Part shown: positions 12,040 to 50,812 of the stretch, piece by piece
Layout of the letters: the number at the start of each line of letters is the position of its first letter
How positions within the stretch are numbered: position 1 is the stretch's first letter
Source of the DNA: Patescibacteria group bacterium
GTDB taxonomy: Bacteria; Patescibacteriota; Patescibacteriia; UBA2591; UBA4787
Reading direction: 5' to 3'
NCBI GenBank assembly: GCA_028715115.1
Contig: JAQUSN010000002.1
Span: 132,944 to 196,943 of the forward strand
Length of the DNA: 64,000 bases
The notes under the pieces: model-generated
Seen by the model: the letters and a program-made list of their open reading frames with translations, nothing else
Told to the model about the DNA's origin: nothing
The model's database searches: none
Program-made: the position numbers and the translations under genes

Positions 12040-12064
12040 CCGGCGCGGAACTAGTCCGCGCCGG
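12040..12064 (-). terminator. Intrinsic terminator for the minus-strand GC-rich operon (ccggcgcgga / tccgcgccgg). The stop codon sits in its loop and a T-rich run follows on the minus strand.
   Basis: Perfect 10-bp GC stem. Confidence 0.6.
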
Positions 12065-12269
12065 GAGATGGTTCTTGCTGCTGGAAGAGTGCCTTGTTCG
12101 GCATGCCGTCGGTTATGACTACGAGAACAGAGATGAGGGCACTGCCTATCTGCCACAGGATGAGTCTGATCACGAAAGGGCCCGGCATCATACAGAGCCC
12201 GATAGTGAGTCCAAGCCAGGCGCCTATGATAGACCAGAATATCACGTCTCTTGTCCCTAGATCCCTCAT
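12051..12269 (-). CDS. GC-rich small 2-TM membrane protein (72 aa), second gene of a two-gene GC-rich operon.
   Basis: Its ATG overlaps the upstream stop (ATGA). It has two hydrophobic helices and is visibly GC-rich in an AT-rich genome. Confidence 0.5.
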   Translation of the reverse strand: MRDLGTRDVIFWSIIGAWLGLTIGLCMMPGPFVIRLILWQIGSALISVLVVITDGMPNKALFQQQEPSPGAD

Positions 12270-12490
12270 GACGTCCCCGTAGGGCGGGCGTCAAGAGGCG
12301 TTTTTTCCGTAGCGATTTCGTACAAGAAAACCAGGATCAGGCTGATCACTAACCAGGCGCTGGTCAGTAACGGGACGCCCAGGCCGATGCACAGAACCTT
12401 CCATAGGTTCAGCATGTCGAAGTGGCAGATCCAGATGACGTACTTGATGCACGTCACGAACCAGACGATGAAACACACTAGAGAAATCAC
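12266..12490 (-). CDS. GC-rich small 2-TM membrane protein (74 aa; weak resemblance to PLD_N/YxlE-type small membrane proteins).
   Basis: GTG start with AAGGAGG 5 nt upstream. A promoter-like TTGACA ... TATAAT element lies upstream on the minus strand. GC-rich. Confidence 0.5.
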   Translation of the reverse strand: MISLVCFIVWFVTCIKYVIWICHFDMLNLWKVLCIGLGVPLLTSAWLVISLILVFLYEIATEKTPLDARPTGTS

Positions 12491-12577
12491 TCCTGCCTCC
12501 TTAGTTAGGTTGTATTTAATATTATATATTTTTGGTTAATTGTCAATCCATTTATACACCGAATATCTTAAATAACC

Positions 12578-22945: not shown

Positions 22946-22958
22946 GATTATAAAGGGG

Positions 22959-22987
22959 TTGACAAAATCATAAAAATGCGTTAATAT
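22959..22987 (+). promoter_or_regulatory. Consensus promoter for the GC-rich gene (TTGACA, 17 nt, TAATAT).
   Basis: Seen directly in the sequence. Confidence 0.55.
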
Positions 22988-23049
22988 AATAAAAGTGGCG
23001 GCATAAGTCGCTGCAAATTCCGATTATTTAGATAACGAAAGGAGTCCTC

Positions 23050-23427
23050 GTGGACGAAGCCCTGATCGGATTGATTATCCCCAAGTCTCCTTGGGCTATG
23101 GCCAAGGAGGCGAATACGCTGGGTGCGCTGATAACCATACTGCGCACTTACTACTTCTTCATGGTGGGCGTGCGCGACTGGAGACAGGTCGCAAACAACA
23201 TCAACGAGACATCGGTGCAGATTGTGGAAGAAACATCCAGCTGCGTAAGAGCAGAGGTTGATTTCACGGTTATGACCGATGCAGGTCTCTTCATCGGCGC
23301 GATGGCCGTGCACGTCAAGGCGCTCAATGCAACTTTGGCCGACAGCAGAATGACACAGCTGTCGACCTGGCTACAAAGAGCGATCGGCAACAGTACGTTC
23401 GTTCAGGTGATCCTGAGGACGAGATAG
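23050..23427 (+). CDS. GC-rich hypothetical protein (125 aa).
   Basis: GTG start with AAAGGAG 5 nt upstream. Consensus promoter and downstream terminator. Visibly GC-rich. No motif recognised. Confidence 0.5.
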   Translation: MDEALIGLIIPKSPWAMAKEANTLGALITILRTYYFFMVGVRDWRQVANNINETSVQIVEETSSCVRAEVDFTVMTDAGLFIGAMAVHVKALNATLADSRMTQLSTWLQRAIGNSTFVQVILRTR

Positions 23428-23446
23428 ACGGAGGTTTGACCATTCG

Positions 23447-23477
23447 GAGCCGTCGGCTTAGGCCGGCGGCTCTTTTC
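23447..23477 (+). terminator. Intrinsic terminator (gagccgtcggc / gccggcggctc, then a T-run).
   Basis: GC stem plus T-run. Confidence 0.55.
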
Positions 23478-23496
23478 TAATTATGCACAATTTCAA

Positions 23497-23727
23497 TTGA
23501 CGCAAATAAATAAGCAGAATATAATAAAAGAGATGGGGACTGGCACCACGCCTCAACTGCTGGGCCTTTAATGCCTCATCGAACGCATAAACTGGAGGTT
23601 ATCTATGCTGAGACGGCTTCTGAAGGACGAGAGCGGATAGTCGAGACGACGAAGAAGCGGAGCTCGCATAACGCGAGCTCGCACTCCCGGGGCGCACTGC
23701 GCTCTGGGAGTTTTTTTATGGAGTGGA
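23497..23727 (+). other. GC-rich mini transcription unit: exact TTGACG, 17 nt, TATAAT promoter (23497-23525); SD GGAGG; 11-codon ORF MLRRLLKDESG (23605-23640); strong 12-bp terminator plus T7 (23694-23727).
   Basis: All elements seen in the sequence. Possible small RNA or leader peptide. Confidence 0.35.
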
Positions 23728-23767
23728 TAACTTTAATTTACAAATTTTATTTATAAAATATAATAAA

Positions 23768-23985
23768 AAAAGACAAAGACAGAATCATTGTGTAAGTACA
23801 CCGGGTCTACGGATCCGGTGGGCATACCCAGGGAGGTATGAGATTGGTTTGGTAAGCTGAATGCCCGGCTAGCCCTTGTTCCGAATTCTTAGGAGCCCGG
23901 AGCCGAGGTACGCCAGGGAGAGCAGCGCCAGCCCCGGGGATGCAGATTGAGCTTCAGCTCTCTGCTCCCCGGGTATTATTTTTTT
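23768..23985 (+). ncRNA. Candidate GC-rich structured RNA of about 220 nt ending in an intrinsic terminator (cccgggga / tccccggg, then T7). Identity unknown.
   Basis: Non-coding and roughly 60% GC by eye. A promoter-like TTTACA ... TATAAT element lies upstream. The strong terminator at 23933-23985 is immediately before the rplJ promoter. Confidence 0.3.
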
Positions 23986-24008
23986 ATCTGGTCTGGGGAT
24001 AACTCTCG

Positions 24009-24204
24009 TTGACACTTAATTATTTTTGATTATACTAATTATATCTTAACCGTAGACAGTGTGGCCTTCGACGAATCGTCGGAGTTAATACACCAGCCCA
24101 CCGAGGTCAAAAGACATTTTATTGTCTGCGGTTATCCGCAGATTATTTATTATTACGAATTACATATTTTTAGATTTAATTTTTGGTTTTTAATTTTACT
24201 TTAT
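24009..24204 (+). promoter_or_regulatory. rplJ promoter (TTGACA, 16 nt, TATACT) and structured L10 leader with hairpins cgacgaatcgtcg and ctgcggttatccgcag.
   Basis: Promoter hexamers and several stem-loops in the 170-nt 5' UTR. Consistent with autoregulatory L10 leaders. Confidence 0.5.
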
Positions 24205-44877: not shown

Positions 44878-44905
44878 AAAAACGAACCGAATTGGTTCGT
44901 TTTTA
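44878..44905 (+). terminator. Intrinsic terminator (aacgaacc / ggttcgtt, then a T-run).
   Basis: Perfect 8-bp stem followed by ttttt. Confidence 0.65.
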
Positions 44906-44964
44906 TATAAGCAAACCCCCCGACCAAACGTCGAGGGGGTGCACGTAAGTGCATTGAACCTCCT

Positions 44965-45174
44965 TTAGCTCTGAAATGTTATCTTGCGCCAGGTTATCCT
45001 GACGAGCGTGACCGGTATCAGAACGGCTATCGTGGCATAGAACCGGAGTCGTTTGAGCGCCTTGTCCATCCATTCGGCAATTACCACCATCAGCCAGATG
45101 ATGAGCTTGCCCAGTTCAGCAGACTCAGCGCTCGACGGTCCGTAGGGATCGGTGGGCGAGAAGTCGTTGTTCAT
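44965..45174 (-). CDS. GC-rich small 2-TM membrane protein (69 aa).
   Basis: ATG with AGGAG 5 nt upstream. It is driven from a palindromic divergent promoter. A GC-rich hairpin terminator lies downstream (44907-44940). GC-rich. Confidence 0.5.
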   Translation of the reverse strand: MNNDFSPTDPYGPSSAESAELGKLIIWLMVVIAEWMDKALKRLRFYATIAVLIPVTLVRITWRKITFQS

Positions 45175-45192
45175 AATAACTCCTATATAATA

Positions 45193-45251
45193 AATATAGC
45201 ATATTTTTTACACTTAGTCAATATTGACAAAAACTAAAAATATGCTATATT
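45193..45251. promoter_or_regulatory. Nested palindrome forming symmetric divergent promoters. The outer 16-bp inverted repeat (aatatagcatattttt / aaaaatatgctatatt) supplies a TATATT -10 on both strands. The central palindrome gtcaatattgac supplies TTGACA (+) and TTGACT (-).
   Basis: Seen directly in the sequence. Spacings are 16 nt (+) and 17 nt (-). Confidence 0.6.
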
Positions 45252-45276
45252 AAAAATAACCTTAAAGGAGGTTCGT

Positions 45277-45654
45277 ATGTTCGAACGTGCAGATTCCGGA
45301 AGCGGTCATCGTTTCCCCGAACCGCCCGAGCCGGCAGAAAACTTCCGCTGGTTCATGGAAGCCAGCCATGCCCACCGCGTCCTACCGATCCGCGTAGTCG
45401 GTGGCCCCCTGAAGTCCCTTAACGGTGACGGGCTCTTGAGCCTTGAGTTCGCTCTGGCCCGCAGAAGCGGCCGCCGGAATGAGCCCATGGTCGCCGAGAT
45501 CCACGTCCTCAGTCACGAGCAGGTTACCGACAGCATGATGTCGGTAATCGGTCCGGTAGTCGCCGTTGACGGTTTGCGAACCGAGTCGCACCGGTCGGCG
45601 ACAATCACCTTCGATCACATCAAGCAGACGGGAACGTTGCGGTTTCTGCAGTAG
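45277..45654 (+). CDS. GC-rich hypothetical soluble protein (125 aa).
   Basis: AAAGGAGG 7 nt before the ATG. A perfect terminator lies downstream. One 60-nt stretch of the ORF counted by hand was 37/60 GC. Confidence 0.55.
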   Translation: MFERADSGSGHRFPEPPEPAENFRWFMEASHAHRVLPIRVVGGPLKSLNGDGLLSLEFALARRSGRRNEPMVAEIHVLSHEQVTDSMMSVIGPVVAVDGLRTESHRSATITFDHIKQTGTLRFLQ

Positions 45655-45669
45655 AGTTCCCGAGCACCC

Positions 45670-45702
45670 GAGCGCCGAGGTCCTCTCGGCGCTCTTCTTT
45701 TT
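45670..45702 (+). terminator. Intrinsic terminator (gagcgccgag / ctcggcgctc, loop gtcct, then a T-run).
   Basis: Perfect 10-bp stem. Confidence 0.7.
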
Positions 45703-45726
45703 ATATATTTTAAAACAAAAAGAGAA

Positions 45727-45754
45727 GGCGAGCCGCAAAGAACTGCGGCTCGCC
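45727..45754 (-). terminator. Perfect 10-bp hairpin (ggcgagccgc / gcggctcgcc) with a T-rich run on the minus-strand side. Candidate terminator of a minus-strand transcript from the 45.76-46.1 kb structured region.
   Basis: Seen directly in the sequence. Confidence 0.4.
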
Positions 45755-45757
45755 ATG

Positions 45758-45960
45758 TAACGGGAGGGCGGACCTGCCCACAAACGGTCGACTTGACTTT
45801 GCTCCCCTTGCCCAAGTCAGTGGTCGACTGTCCGCCTCCTGGCGTACCCCGTGAAGTACATCGATTCAGTCAATCCTGGCACATATTTCCGTCACAGGAC
45901 TCGCAGTAGAGTGACAGAAAAGCGCGGGTCCTTCGTTCACCACGCCCCAAAGGAGGTTAT
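45758..45960. other. GC-rich structured noncoding segment. It holds a long imperfect hairpin (gggagggcggac ... gtccgcctcc enclosing gtcgacttgactt / aagtcagtggtcgac) and further stem-loops. Candidate sRNA or cis element.
   Basis: No ORF has start signals. It contains an orphan AAAGGAGG with no start codon in range. Several long complementary segments. Confidence 0.3.
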
Positions 45961-46213
45961 ACGATATAGGGACAGGATTTAACCGATGTACGGAAGGAAA
46001 CCCATTTAAGGGAAAAGGGACGCCAATAACACCTCCGATTGTGATATAATAGCAGAAAGGTAAAATTTTGTCAAGTCCCAAAGTGGCATTATAAGGTGGT
46101 TTTATTAACATTTAGTCAGAGCTAAACTTGATGATTTGCACATTAATGCTTCCAATTATTTAGTAAAATGGTATTATATATATTATTAGTTTAATCATTA
46201 AAAACATATAATT

Positions 46214-46681: not shown

Positions 46682-46711
46682 AAAAGATTGAGAACAATCT
46701 TTGTAAATAAA

Positions 46712-46745
46712 GGGCGGGACTCCGGTTAGGGAGCCCCGCTTTTGA
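46712..46745. terminator. Bidirectional terminator between tspO (+) and the GC-rich minus-strand gene (gcgggactcc / ggagccccgc, then tttt).
   Basis: Imperfect GC stem with T-runs on both sides. Confidence 0.5.
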
Positions 46746-46762
46746 AAGCCGAACGGCCGCGA

Positions 46763-47044
46763 TCAGGTTGTGGGCTTGGGGGCGGGGACCACGTGGGCCC
46801 AGAAGTTGCAGCCCAGAGGGTCGCCGATCATGAGTGCATCACCGCGCCCCGGCTTCTTCTCGGAGATCACGAGAAAGCCTGTTCCGTTGGGCGGAGGGGA
46901 GACCCACCTCTGGTTCGTCGGATCGAAGCCGACCATTGCCTCGGAATAGGCCGGGCTTATCTCGTGGGGTTGAGAGGGGATGACGGTGCCGTCAGCGGGG
47001 AAGACAACCGTTCCGCTTACCGGCGTAGTTGCGCCTTCGGTCAC
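46763..47044 (-). CDS. GC-rich hypothetical protein (93 aa).
   Basis: GTG start with AAGGAGG 5 nt upstream. A TTGACA, 16 nt, TATATT promoter on the minus strand. GC-rich. Confidence 0.55.
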   Translation of the reverse strand: MTEGATTPVSGTVVFPADGTVIPSQPHEISPAYSEAMVGFDPTNQRWVSPPPNGTGFLVISEKKPGRGDALMIGDPLGCNFWAHVVPAPKPTT

Positions 47045-47093
47045 GAATACCTCCTTAGGGTAATGAATGTAGGGGACTTACTCGAACATTTAT

Positions 47094-47172
47094 AATATAC
47101 AACTTTTATACATTTTGTCAAGATTACAGGTGAATTTTATTAACTTGACTTTTGACTAAAATCGTTTATAAT
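47094..47172. promoter_or_regulatory. AT-rich divergent promoter region. Minus strand: TTGACA (47116-47121) and TATATT (47094-47099). Plus strand: TTGACT (47145-47150), 16 nt, TATAAT (47167-47172).
   Basis: Seen directly in the sequence. Confidence 0.55.
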
Positions 47173-47197
47173 ATAAAACAACAGGAGGAATTACCGA

Positions 47198-47629
47198 ATG
47201 AAGTCATTGCTAACCGCAATCGTGATCGTGGTGGTAATAATCCTCCCGTCACGACTGGCGGCACAACCCGTTTCCCCGTGGTCCAAGGTCTGTCTGGAGA
47301 GCTCGTCCGACGAATGGAGCAGGTGCGAAAGATACACGCGCCTGATTGATTCGTCAGGATCATGGATTGTCATCAAGAGGACGCTTTCTCGCGATGGGAT
47401 ACTGGTTCTCGACGTTTCCTACCAGGCGAGTACCGACAGTATCAAGTGGGCATGTTATGATGTCTGTGATGATACGGTCAGCGGCACTGGTGACATTGAA
47501 GCGATCCTCGGCGACATCTACGACTACTGGCAGGATGGCGTCTTCGCAGACCTACCGATCGTGGTTCGTGGAGGGGTGTGGTCAATGATCGCCCCCTTCA
47601 AGCTATCGGAGGGCGAGCTTAGTGAGTAG
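47198..47629 (+). CDS. GC-rich secreted protein (143 aa; signal peptide, 4 Cys).
   Basis: AGGAGG 8 nt before the ATG. N-terminal signal peptide (MKSLLTAIVIVVVIILPSRLAAQP). GC-rich. Terminator at 47634-47667. Confidence 0.55.
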   Translation: MKSLLTAIVIVVVIILPSRLAAQPVSPWSKVCLESSSDEWSRCERYTRLIDSSGSWIVIKRTLSRDGILVLDVSYQASTDSIKWACYDVCDDTVSGTGDIEAILGDIYDYWQDGVFADLPIVVRGGVWSMIAPFKLSEGELSE

Positions 47630-47745
47630 TATCGGCCGGGCATGGCGCGAAAGCGTCATTCCCGGCCTTATATTTTAATCCCCAGTCGCGATTGACAAAC
47701 TCGGTTTATGCTTCATAATTAAATATTAATTCGTGATTTCATTTA

Positions 47746-48401: not shown

Positions 48402-48599
48402 ATGGCCTATAGTAAGTGTAAAAAATGCGGCATGCCGCTAAAAAATGAAGAAGGCGCCGAAGATAGTTGCGCTTGTAATCAAGATCTTTGTAAGTATTGT
48501 TGCGAGTGCAACTTCGGCTGCCAATGTGGCTGCAAGGAAGAAAGTGAAGGACGAAACGACACGAATGAAAGCGATGACTTTCAAAACAACGTAGAATAA
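48402..48599 (+). CDS. Small Cys-rich protein (65 aa; metallothionein-like or zinc-ribbon).
   Basis: 15 Cys in CxxC / CxC / CC arrangements. Host-like AT-rich codons. Confidence 0.4.
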   Translation: MAYSKCKKCGMPLKNEEGAEDSCACNQDLCKYCCECNFGCQCGCKEESEGRNDTNESDDFQNNVE

Positions 48600-50052: not shown

Positions 50053-50074
50053 GCCGCCCCGGTTAAGGGGCGGC
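50053..50074. terminator. Bidirectional terminator (gccgcccc / ggggcggc). It overlaps the 3' coding end of the minus-strand Cys-rich gene.
   Basis: Perfect 8-bp GC stem between convergent genes. Confidence 0.6.
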
Positions 50075-50302
50075 AGTAAACATGGACGGGGATTGACCTC
50101 TGTGGCGGACCCGTGTCCGGGTTTGTCTGGGCCGAACGAGCGGGGAGATGGGGCAGGCGATCATCTTCTCTTGATAGTATCTTGAGCAAGTAGCGCAGCA
50201 GGACTTAAGACATTTGTTGGTCTTGGGGCATCCTTTTGCCAGGTTACATCCTTCGCAGCATGGATGTAGTTTGCCACCACAGCCAGCAGGGTTACTGTCC
50301 AT
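50063..50302 (-). CDS. GC-rich Cys-rich small protein (79 aa from the SD-preceded Met; 11 Cys in CC/CxxC patterns, metallothionein-like N-terminus, basic tail).
   Basis: GGAGG 7 nt upstream of the ATG at 50302. The ORF-track ATG at 50326 has no SD. A TTGACA lies at about 50356-50361 on the minus strand. GC-rich. The last 8 codons are encoded by the terminator hairpin. Confidence 0.45.
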   Translation of the reverse strand: MDSNPAGCGGKLHPCCEGCNLAKGCPKTNKCLKSCCATCSRYYQEKMIACPISPLVRPRQTRTRVRHRGQSPSMFTAAP

Positions 50303-50812
50303 AGGAGAGCCTCCATAGTTTGGCATATCTATAGCTTAATACTATTTTAGAGGTTTGTCAATTATTTATTTATATATTTATTTTACGACACTTGATAATT
50401 TAATTATCTTTTTTTGTTTATTTTAATAATCAGATTTTTAATAAAAGAGGCTTAAGTTTTATTAAAATCATTGTTAAAAAGGGGAAACATGGACTAAACC
50501 GATAAAATCGAGCATATCTGATAAATAACTGAACTTAGATACATATCCTTGATCTATTACCTATGTGCCCTACAATTTTAAAAAATTTTTATAATAAAGT
50601 TGAGATAGATATCAAGAATAGAGCAGTGAAAAACAAAAAATATTTTTTTAATAAAATAGATGGAGTATATATCATCTTTTAAGGTTAAAAAACAAACAAA
50701 ATAGGCCTTTTATTAGAAGACCTATTTTGTTGAAGATCCTGACTTGGCTTCGTAAAAGGTATATTGTGCGACGCTGTATATCTAGAAAAACCTTATATCC
50801 CCTTTAATATAT

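Follow-up and report, generated by a model that had tools for sequence, protein, structure and literature searches.

A stretch of 64,000 nucleotides (nt; hereafter the window) from a Patescibacteria genome of the Candidate Phyla Radiation (CPR) was analysed (assembly GCA_028715115.1, contig JAQUSN010000002.1, positions 132,944 to 196,943), with the focus on the locus at positions 46712-47667 of the window. Two divergent small genes are located there, with TspO on one side and NUDIX on the other. The plus strand carries an open reading frame (ORF) for a protein of 143 amino acids (aa) and the minus strand an ORF for 93 aa (Table 1). The features listed in the original prediction for this locus, i.e. 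an AT-rich divergent promoter region with TTGACA and TTGACT as -35 boxes, Shine-Dalgarno sequences, a GTG start codon and terminators, were all found in place. The locus had also been likened to a gene pair at 45 kb, and this was confirmed, as divergent promoters and a terminator at each end are present there too. In the NCBI records of 'Patescibacteria group bacterium', the annotated gene order is DUF1648/SdpI, 69 aa, 125 aa, TspO, 143 aa and NUDIX. The neighbours are cellular genes, namely TspO (assigned by Pfam PF03073, E 3e-34), NUDIX, a DUF1648/SdpI-like gene and a beta-CASP nuclease gene.

Composition and boundaries of the locus

The locus forms an island of 54.5% guanine plus cytosine (GC), compared with 32-34% in the flanks and 37.6% in the window overall. 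The GC content amounts to 64% in the 93-aa ORF and 54% in the 143-aa ORF, while the spacer between them (153 nt from start codon to start codon) has 29% GC, and the break in composition sits exactly at the ORF boundaries. At third codon positions, the GC content (GC3) of both ORFs is 0.66-0.76 versus about 0.34 in the neighbouring genes (0.32-0.40 in native neighbours). Both ORFs display the order GC3>GC1>GC2, where GC1 and GC2 stand for the first and second codon positions. The amino-acid composition of both products is of the GC type as well, with GC1 and GC2 raised and Arg no less frequent than Lys.

The junctions of the island are spanned by an independent Logan contig (100% identical) and by a sister metagenome-assembled genome (L001; 99.97% identical, 3 differences in 11,441 bp), hence they are not assembly artefacts. 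An AT-rich hairpin behind the native TspO gene marks the end of the host-type DNA just ahead of the island. The native genes beside the GC-rich islands of the window retain their own weak AT-rich hairpins just outside of the islands. The GC-rich hairpin which terminates the 93-aa unit is followed by the U-rich tail CCUUUAUUU, listed also as CCTTTATTTA; with TTTT after it on the plus strand, the same hairpin could also stop read-through from TspO.

Within the spacer, the -35 boxes of both promoters are 23 nt apart. The -10 boxes are covered by a 15-nt direct repeat, TTTATAATATA[C/A]AAC, located at 47089-47103 and 47165-47179 of the plus strand, and these are the only exact copies in the 64-kb window. 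The repeat could be an operator or mere extended -10 context; most of it is accounted for by the -10 box and the AT-rich sequence around it, and comparable motifs are found at the units at 23 kb.

The 143-aa gene and its family

Chance ORFs with at least 80% of the 143-aa length were obtained in 3.4% of shuffles, and the combined coding signal of the 143-aa ORF was reached by none of 1000 chance ORFs. The annotated frame was selected by a codon model derived from the other GC-rich ORFs. Homologues were searched with a word index over 5.8 billion clusters and with a HMMER profile run exhaustively against 1.84 billion cluster representatives. Among about 15 billion proteins, two only were recovered, P0010 (134 aa) and P0011 (137 aa), which share 46% identity in the alignment (45% by BLASTP) and 43%, respectively, with the 143-aa protein. 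The conserved parts are the signal peptide, a block reading SPWSxVCLESSSDxWSxCERYTR and the motif WQDGVF..LP..R..W. P0011 and P0010 are tandem paralogues separated by 255 nt; they and the two genes which enclose them have the same orientation on a 1751-bp metagenome contig from JGI. Direct scans of metagenome and genome contigs for the family found none. On coding signal and conservation, the 143-aa ORF is judged to be a real gene.

The N-terminal region of the 143-aa product was evaluated by inspection and hydropathy. A hydrophobic core of 14 residues is present, with a Kyte-Doolittle value of 2.99 over residues 4-18, and an AXA-type cleavage site occupies the same place in all three family members (LAA/Q here, AVA/ES in P0010 and VAA/WS in P0011, the slash marking the predicted cleavage). 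Neither a lipobox nor a sortase motif is found in the protein. By these features the segment is a type I Sec signal peptide; the one announced in the original prediction thus has both its position and its cleavage site maintained in the two known homologues. The protein had also been labelled as a '4-Cys' protein. It does contain four cysteines (residues 32, 43, 86 and 90), but they do not define the family, since only Cys43 is invariant and Cys32 is present in two of the three sequences. The sole base difference of the locus between the window and L001, at position 47550, corresponds to a D118V exchange in the 143-aa secreted protein.

The structure of the protein was predicted with AlphaFold2. 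The full-length model obtained from a 3-sequence alignment was unusable, with a predicted local distance difference test score (pLDDT) of 51.5. Once the signal peptide was removed and P0011 added, the pLDDT for the mature part rose to 79.6 (four sequences; predicted template modelling score 0.73). In this model, the mature part of the 143-aa product consists of six antiparallel strands in a beta-meander, with two helices at the C-terminus. No significant fold match was detected in PDB or in BFVD (viral models). A search of the PDB sequences gave nothing significant for either product, the best E being 0.096 for the 143-aa product. With three sequences in about 15 billion proteins, the family represents a candidate new small secreted alpha/beta fold from an episymbiotic lineage. 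Surface and secreted proteins of this lineage are thought to mediate the contact with the host.

The 143-aa precursor would be exported by Sec and cleaved after Ala22, releasing an acidic alpha/beta protein of 13.5 kDa at the cell surface or beyond it. Given an episymbiotic CPR cell, the mature protein would most plausibly bind a surface or a ligand of the partner or of the environment.

Coding potential of the 93-aa ORF

An alternative view of the minus strand holds that the 143-aa gene is the sole real one and that the 93-aa ORF arose by chance within GC-rich DNA, its unit giving a non-coding or antisense transcript or being a decaying remnant. Chance ORFs with at least 80% of the 93-aa length were obtained in 21% of the dinucleotide shuffles of that stretch, so that the length of the ORF alone means little. 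A 117-aa ORF overlaps it on the opposite strand. No homologue was found among the about 15 billion proteins, the PDB sequences, the phage and plasmid records and IMG/VR, and the gene was called by Logan only and is absent from the NCBI annotation. The predicted product, acidic (isoelectric point, pI, 5.0) and with one Cys and no hydrophobic segment, contains 26% Pro plus Gly and is of somewhat low complexity. All this would fit a chance ORF.

The position and composition of the ORF argue the other way. A perfect AAGGAGG precedes the first possible start codon at a distance of 5 nt, and the ORF spans its unit from promoter to terminator. Its GC3 excess was reached by 6 of 1000 chance ORFs only, and GC3 excess in combination with the codon-model advantage by 1 of 1000. 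Among the six frames, that of the 93-aa ORF scored best under a leave-one-out codon model built from the remaining GC-rich ORFs. A structured RNA in place of the ORF was considered as well and was ruled out by a fold z-score of -0.05, indicating no excess structure, and by the lack of an Rfam match (no match at the gathering score anywhere in the window, and none of relevance at E<=1 between 44.7 and 47.9 kb). No tRNA or tmRNA genes were found. The chance-ORF explanation is regarded as unlikely, though not negligibly so, and translation of the 93-aa ORF as quite likely. If made, the product is probably cytoplasmic and soluble; its cytoplasmic location had been proposed before and agrees with the lack of a hydrophobic segment.

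Relationship between the two genes

The arrangement had initially been compared to an effector/immunity pair, in which the secreted 143-aa protein would act as antagonist and the cytoplasmic 93-aa protein as protector. The combination of one secreted and one soluble product with a common promoter region is compatible with such a module, as are the 15-nt repeat as a possible common operator, the nonsynonymous nature of the sole strain difference at the locus (D118V, in the secreted protein), and the 45-kb pair, which likewise consists of a membrane and a soluble product. However, the two genes are divergent, each with its own promoter and terminator, and do not form an operon, which leaves no co-transcription. 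No toxin, immunity or defence family was detected for either product in Pfam, NCBIfam, PHROGs and PADLOC, where both products remained without any match, in line with the earlier statement that no family was recognised. An exported Sec substrate would also be out of reach of a cytoplasmic protector.

Co-occurrence of the two genes elsewhere had been proposed as a check, and its absence as a refutation. The 93-aa ORF has no relatives, hence no co-variation or co-occurrence can be followed from its side. At the other locus of the 143-aa family, two tandem paralogues are found and no divergent partner was called beside them; the gap of 255 nt is too short for a 93-aa ORF. The pair therefore does not recur at the sole other locus of the family, which speaks against the pairing, a result that concerns one 1751-bp contig as read from its gene calls. 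Altogether, the effector/immunity hypothesis was not upheld and is considered very unlikely.

A regulator/target relationship was also weighed, in which the 93-aa product would be a divergently encoded transcription factor controlling the secreted protein, possibly via the repeated 15-mer. Divergent genes with a common spacer are a frequent layout for a regulator and its target, and the repeat lies on both -10 boxes with no other exact copy in the window. Against this, no DNA-binding domain was recognised by Pfam or NCBIfam, and a Pro/Gly-rich, acidic product is unlike small DNA-binding proteins. The repeat itself is largely -10 box and AT-rich context, with similar motifs at the 23-kb units. 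This relationship is considered highly improbable.

We favour instead two independent genes. The 93-aa product would be a soluble cytoplasmic protein unrelated to the secreted one, and the common spacer would be due to the insertion site rather than to a toxin/immunity or regulator/target pairing.

Other GC-rich islands in the window

Five intergenic GC-rich islands with about ten self-contained units were identified in the window, at 12.0-12.5, 22.95-24.0, 44.9-46.05, 46.7-47.7 and 50.05-50.33 kb. Of the 14 near-consensus promoter matches in the window, 6 have such an island immediately behind them, although the islands account for about 6% of its length. Part of the units are small orphan ORFs, among which several are hydrophobic or rich in Cys; at least three further units apparently yield structured, non-coding transcripts. 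All small ORFs of the islands show GC3>GC1>GC2, and all except the Cys-rich one predict each other's frames in the codon model. No paralogy was found among the GC-rich ORFs or cassettes at the protein level, and at the DNA level they have only the -10 region in common. Searches of Pfam, NCBIfam, PHROGs and PADLOC gave no match for the 45-kb pair, the homologues and the other cassette ORFs.

In the 45-kb pair, the minus strand encodes a 69-aa product with two hydrophobic segments and the plus strand a soluble Arg-rich product of 125 aa; the -35 boxes of the pair overlap within the palindrome AGTCAATATTGACA. Neither product matched the protein-family libraries searched, a full homologue search not being part of this comparison. 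With a fold z-score of -3.96 and nothing matching in Rfam, the GC-rich unit at 45715-46040, between this pair and TspO, is a candidate for a novel structured RNA.

An amino-acid-kinase gene and an L10 leader enclose the island at 22950-24000 (plus strand), in which three GC-rich units follow each other in tandem; every unit has a consensus promoter and a terminator. The three units have a common -10 context, ATATAATAAAA, and no Rfam match. Downstream, at 24032-24196 (plus strand) and directly 5' of L10 and L7/L12, a sub-threshold Rfam match to the L10 leader was obtained (40.9 bits versus a gathering score of 44, E 8e-5), which is probably a genuine but divergent CPR L10 leader.

At 12051-12490 (minus strand), a GC-rich two-gene unit encodes hydrophobic orphans of 74 aa and 72 aa, with GC3 of 0.76 and 0.67. 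The unit is served by a promoter of its own near 12545, ends at a GC-rich terminator near 12040-12065 and adjoins the native L25 gene, whose promoter matches the consensus at 12 of 12 positions. The beta-CASP nuclease gene is flanked by small Cys-rich orphan ORFs at 50063-50326 (minus strand) and 48402-48599 (plus strand). The former, of 87 aa, is GC-rich and has its own promoter and terminator; its frame is not favoured by the codon model and it is putatively coding. The latter, of 65 aa, contains many CxxC and CC motifs. No Pfam or NCBIfam match was found for either of them.

Over the 11,441 bp compared with L001, all three base differences, corresponding to two mutational events, are nonsynonymous and located inside cassettes. 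Besides D118V, they comprise the AGT>AAC double substitution at 50294-50295, giving S11N in the 87-aa Cys-rich ORF. The cassettes represent 21% of the compared stretch, and the probability for both events to fall inside them is about 0.05. With two events only, this is suggestive of cassettes which evolve faster or under diversifying selection.

Table 1. Coordinates of the features of the 47-kb locus and of further GC-rich units (positions in the window; dG, folding free energy; z, fold z-score; a slash marks the predicted cleavage site)
Feature	Position	Strand	Remarks
143-aa ORF, ATG start	47198..47629	+	stop codon included
Promoter TTGACT-16-TATAAT of the 143-aa unit	47145..47172	+	11/12 consensus matches
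Shine-Dalgarno AGGAGG	47183..47188	+	9 nt before ATG
GC-rich hairpin terminator, right edge of the island	47634..47667	+	dG -28.9 kcal/mol, z -5.6, then UUAUAUUUU
Predicted signal peptide, residues 1-22	47198..47263	+	MK, core SLLTAIVIVVVIIL, PSRLAA/QP
Predicted mature 121-aa protein and stop codon	47264..47629	+	acidic, pI 4.3, 13.5 kDa
93-aa ORF, GTG start	46763..47044	-	GC1/2/3 = 0.61/0.55/0.76
Shine-Dalgarno AAGGAGG	47050..47056	-	5 nt before GTG
Promoter TTGACA-16-TATATT of the 93-aa unit	47094..47121	-	11/12 consensus matches
GC-rich hairpin terminator, left edge of the island	46714..46739	ends the 93-aa unit on -	10 pairs, 8 of them G-C
AT-rich hairpin after native TspO	46683..46702	+	AAAGAUUG-AGAA-CAAUCUUU, dG -6.5 kcal/mol, z -4.0
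45-kb divergent pair	44903-45700		promoters 45221 (-) and 45224 (+); terminators 44938..44916 and 45670..45694
GC-rich unit of about 320 nt, no plausible ORF	45715-46040	-	promoter TTGACA-17-TATTAT 46074..46046; strong terminator 45754..45727
125-aa orphan ORF, GTG start	23050-23427	+	first 23-kb unit
185-nt structured unit	23532-23716	+	z -3.55; possible 13-aa ORF after GGAGG
217-nt structured unit	23772-23988	+	z -4.15

Origin of the cassettes

The two genes are probably, though with clear reservation, independent and horizontally acquired orphan cassettes of a moron-like type, inserted into an AT-rich genome with native TspO on one side and native NUDIX on the other. Each cassette is equipped with a sigma-70 promoter close to the consensus and a strong Shine-Dalgarno sequence ahead of a small GC-rich ORF, and ends in a GC-rich hairpin terminator. 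The ORFs would derive by horizontal transfer from GC-richer donors, because their GC3 of 0.66-0.76 departs from that of the neighbouring genes (about 0.34). They would now stand under AT-rich promoters of the recipient type, as autonomous add-on units similar to phage morons. The promoters are consensus matches, recognised in the DNA sequence alone.

It was also considered that both genes are native and GC-rich by selection, e.g. for mRNA stability or for translation in small genes with very high expression. Both promoters and both ribosome-binding sites are indeed of the host type and among the strongest of the window, the composition breaks exactly at the ORF boundaries, and no mobile-element genes are located nearby. 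Yet the GC3 values lie far past known expression-linked codon bias, and no GC-rich islands of such kind are formed by the genes for ribosomal proteins in the window. The GC-type amino-acid composition and the absence of the genes from all relatives sampled also disagree with a native origin, which is considered quite unlikely.

Several observations weigh against horizontal acquisition of independent cassettes. No donor was found, and no 'empty site' in relatives. The nearest relatives are distant, with 53% identity for the beta-CASP protein (GTDB genomes) and 58% for TspO (JGI metagenomes), and they show no synteny, leaving composition as the only argument for insertion. None of the small ORFs of the window was found in 160 loci around the beta-CASP or TspO anchors of relatives. 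No phage genes or integrases are located nearby; IMG/VR contains no relative of five cassette proteins, and phage and plasmid records gave no convincing match. One tblastn match, to a structural protein of a cyanophage, covered 54 residues at E = 0.01; it was marginal and was judged to be due to chance. The mosaic of ORF and promoter presents a further difficulty. The promoters have 22-29% GC, whereas intergenic DNA in CPR relatives of 50-53% GC has 46-52%; GC3 has not drifted toward AT, so that the AT-rich spacer is not the product of simple drift either. Possible solutions are the capture of promoterless GC-rich ORFs beside host-type promoters, donors with unusually AT-rich control regions, or selection by which the composition is maintained. 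Moreover, the 45-kb and 47-kb pairs each join an exported or membrane product with a soluble one, which could hint at a functional theme. Finally, both proteins and their expression are deduced from sequence.

Among the relatives closest by the beta-CASP protein, most (L004-L008 and L040; 50-53% identity) have genomes of 50-53% GC, compared with 36.5% in L003 and 37.6% in the window. Genome GC content thus varies widely in this part of the Patescibacteria.

Taken singly, the locus is of little weight, as it consists of two orphan genes, one of them for a secreted protein. Its relevance comes from the very rare 143-aa family with its candidate new fold, and from being one case of a repeated pattern, in which GC-rich ORF or RNA bodies are placed on very AT-rich consensus promoters, a mosaic for which simple transfer of whole fragments fails to account. 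In its widest and speculative form, which is unlikely as a whole, the genome would be peppered with autonomous micro-cassettes of foreign composition, each made of a GC-rich small ORF or non-coding RNA, a host-type, near-consensus AT-rich promoter and its own terminator, and the 143-aa protein would be a secreted factor acting on the partner, with an unseen fold and under diversifying selection. If true, the cassettes would correspond to morons, but on the chromosome and independent of phages, by which an ultra-small episymbiont gains and strongly expresses foreign microproteins. If the pattern proved genome-wide and general in CPR, it would inform on the ways in which new genes are acquired and expressed in streamlined symbionts.

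Comparison with known systems

The literature was searched for GC-rich islands in CPR genomes and for the accessions, and nothing relevant was found. Known systems share some features with the locus, and each of them differs in others. Sec-dependent small secreted proteins of monoderms resemble the 143-aa product in the N-terminal Lys, the 14-residue core, the helix-breaking Pro and the small residues at -3 and -1. The mature domain of the 143-aa protein, in contrast, belongs to no described family and has no significant fold match in PDB or BFVD. Polymorphic toxin and bacteriocin-immunity pairs similarly place a small secreted protein beside a small cytoplasmic one. Those pairs are co-directional and co-transcribed, possess recognisable domains and co-occur, none of which was seen at the 47-kb locus.

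Horizontally acquired ORFans and genomic islets agree in several respects, as they are lineage-restricted, have almost no homologues or none, display non-host codon usage and occupy intergenic positions. In bacteria, ORFans usually exceed their genome in AT content. The genes of the window, unlike them, are much GC-richer than the genome, and each is equipped as a complete expression unit under a near-consensus promoter. In addition, the 64 kb contain several units of this type, of which some are apparently non-coding.

Among the concepts described, the phage moron comes closest. Morons are defined by their own promoter, their own terminator and a deviant GC content (PMC3594210). Like phage morons of the HK97 gp15 type, the cassettes are small ORFs with their own sigma-70 promoter, a factor-independent terminator and deviant GC content, placed between unrelated genes. 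Of the features compared, an own promoter (as a consensus match), a terminator and a GC deviation were found, and residence in a phage or prophage was not. The locus lies outside any phage or recognisable prophage, has cellular neighbours and lacks a relative in IMG/VR or the phage records; PHROGs gave no match for the four small ORFs of the 45-kb and 47-kb islands. A further difference from phage morons is that here the promoter is of recipient-type composition and the ORF of foreign type. By analogy, the locus works like a moron without being a member of that class, and the analogy covers the architecture only.

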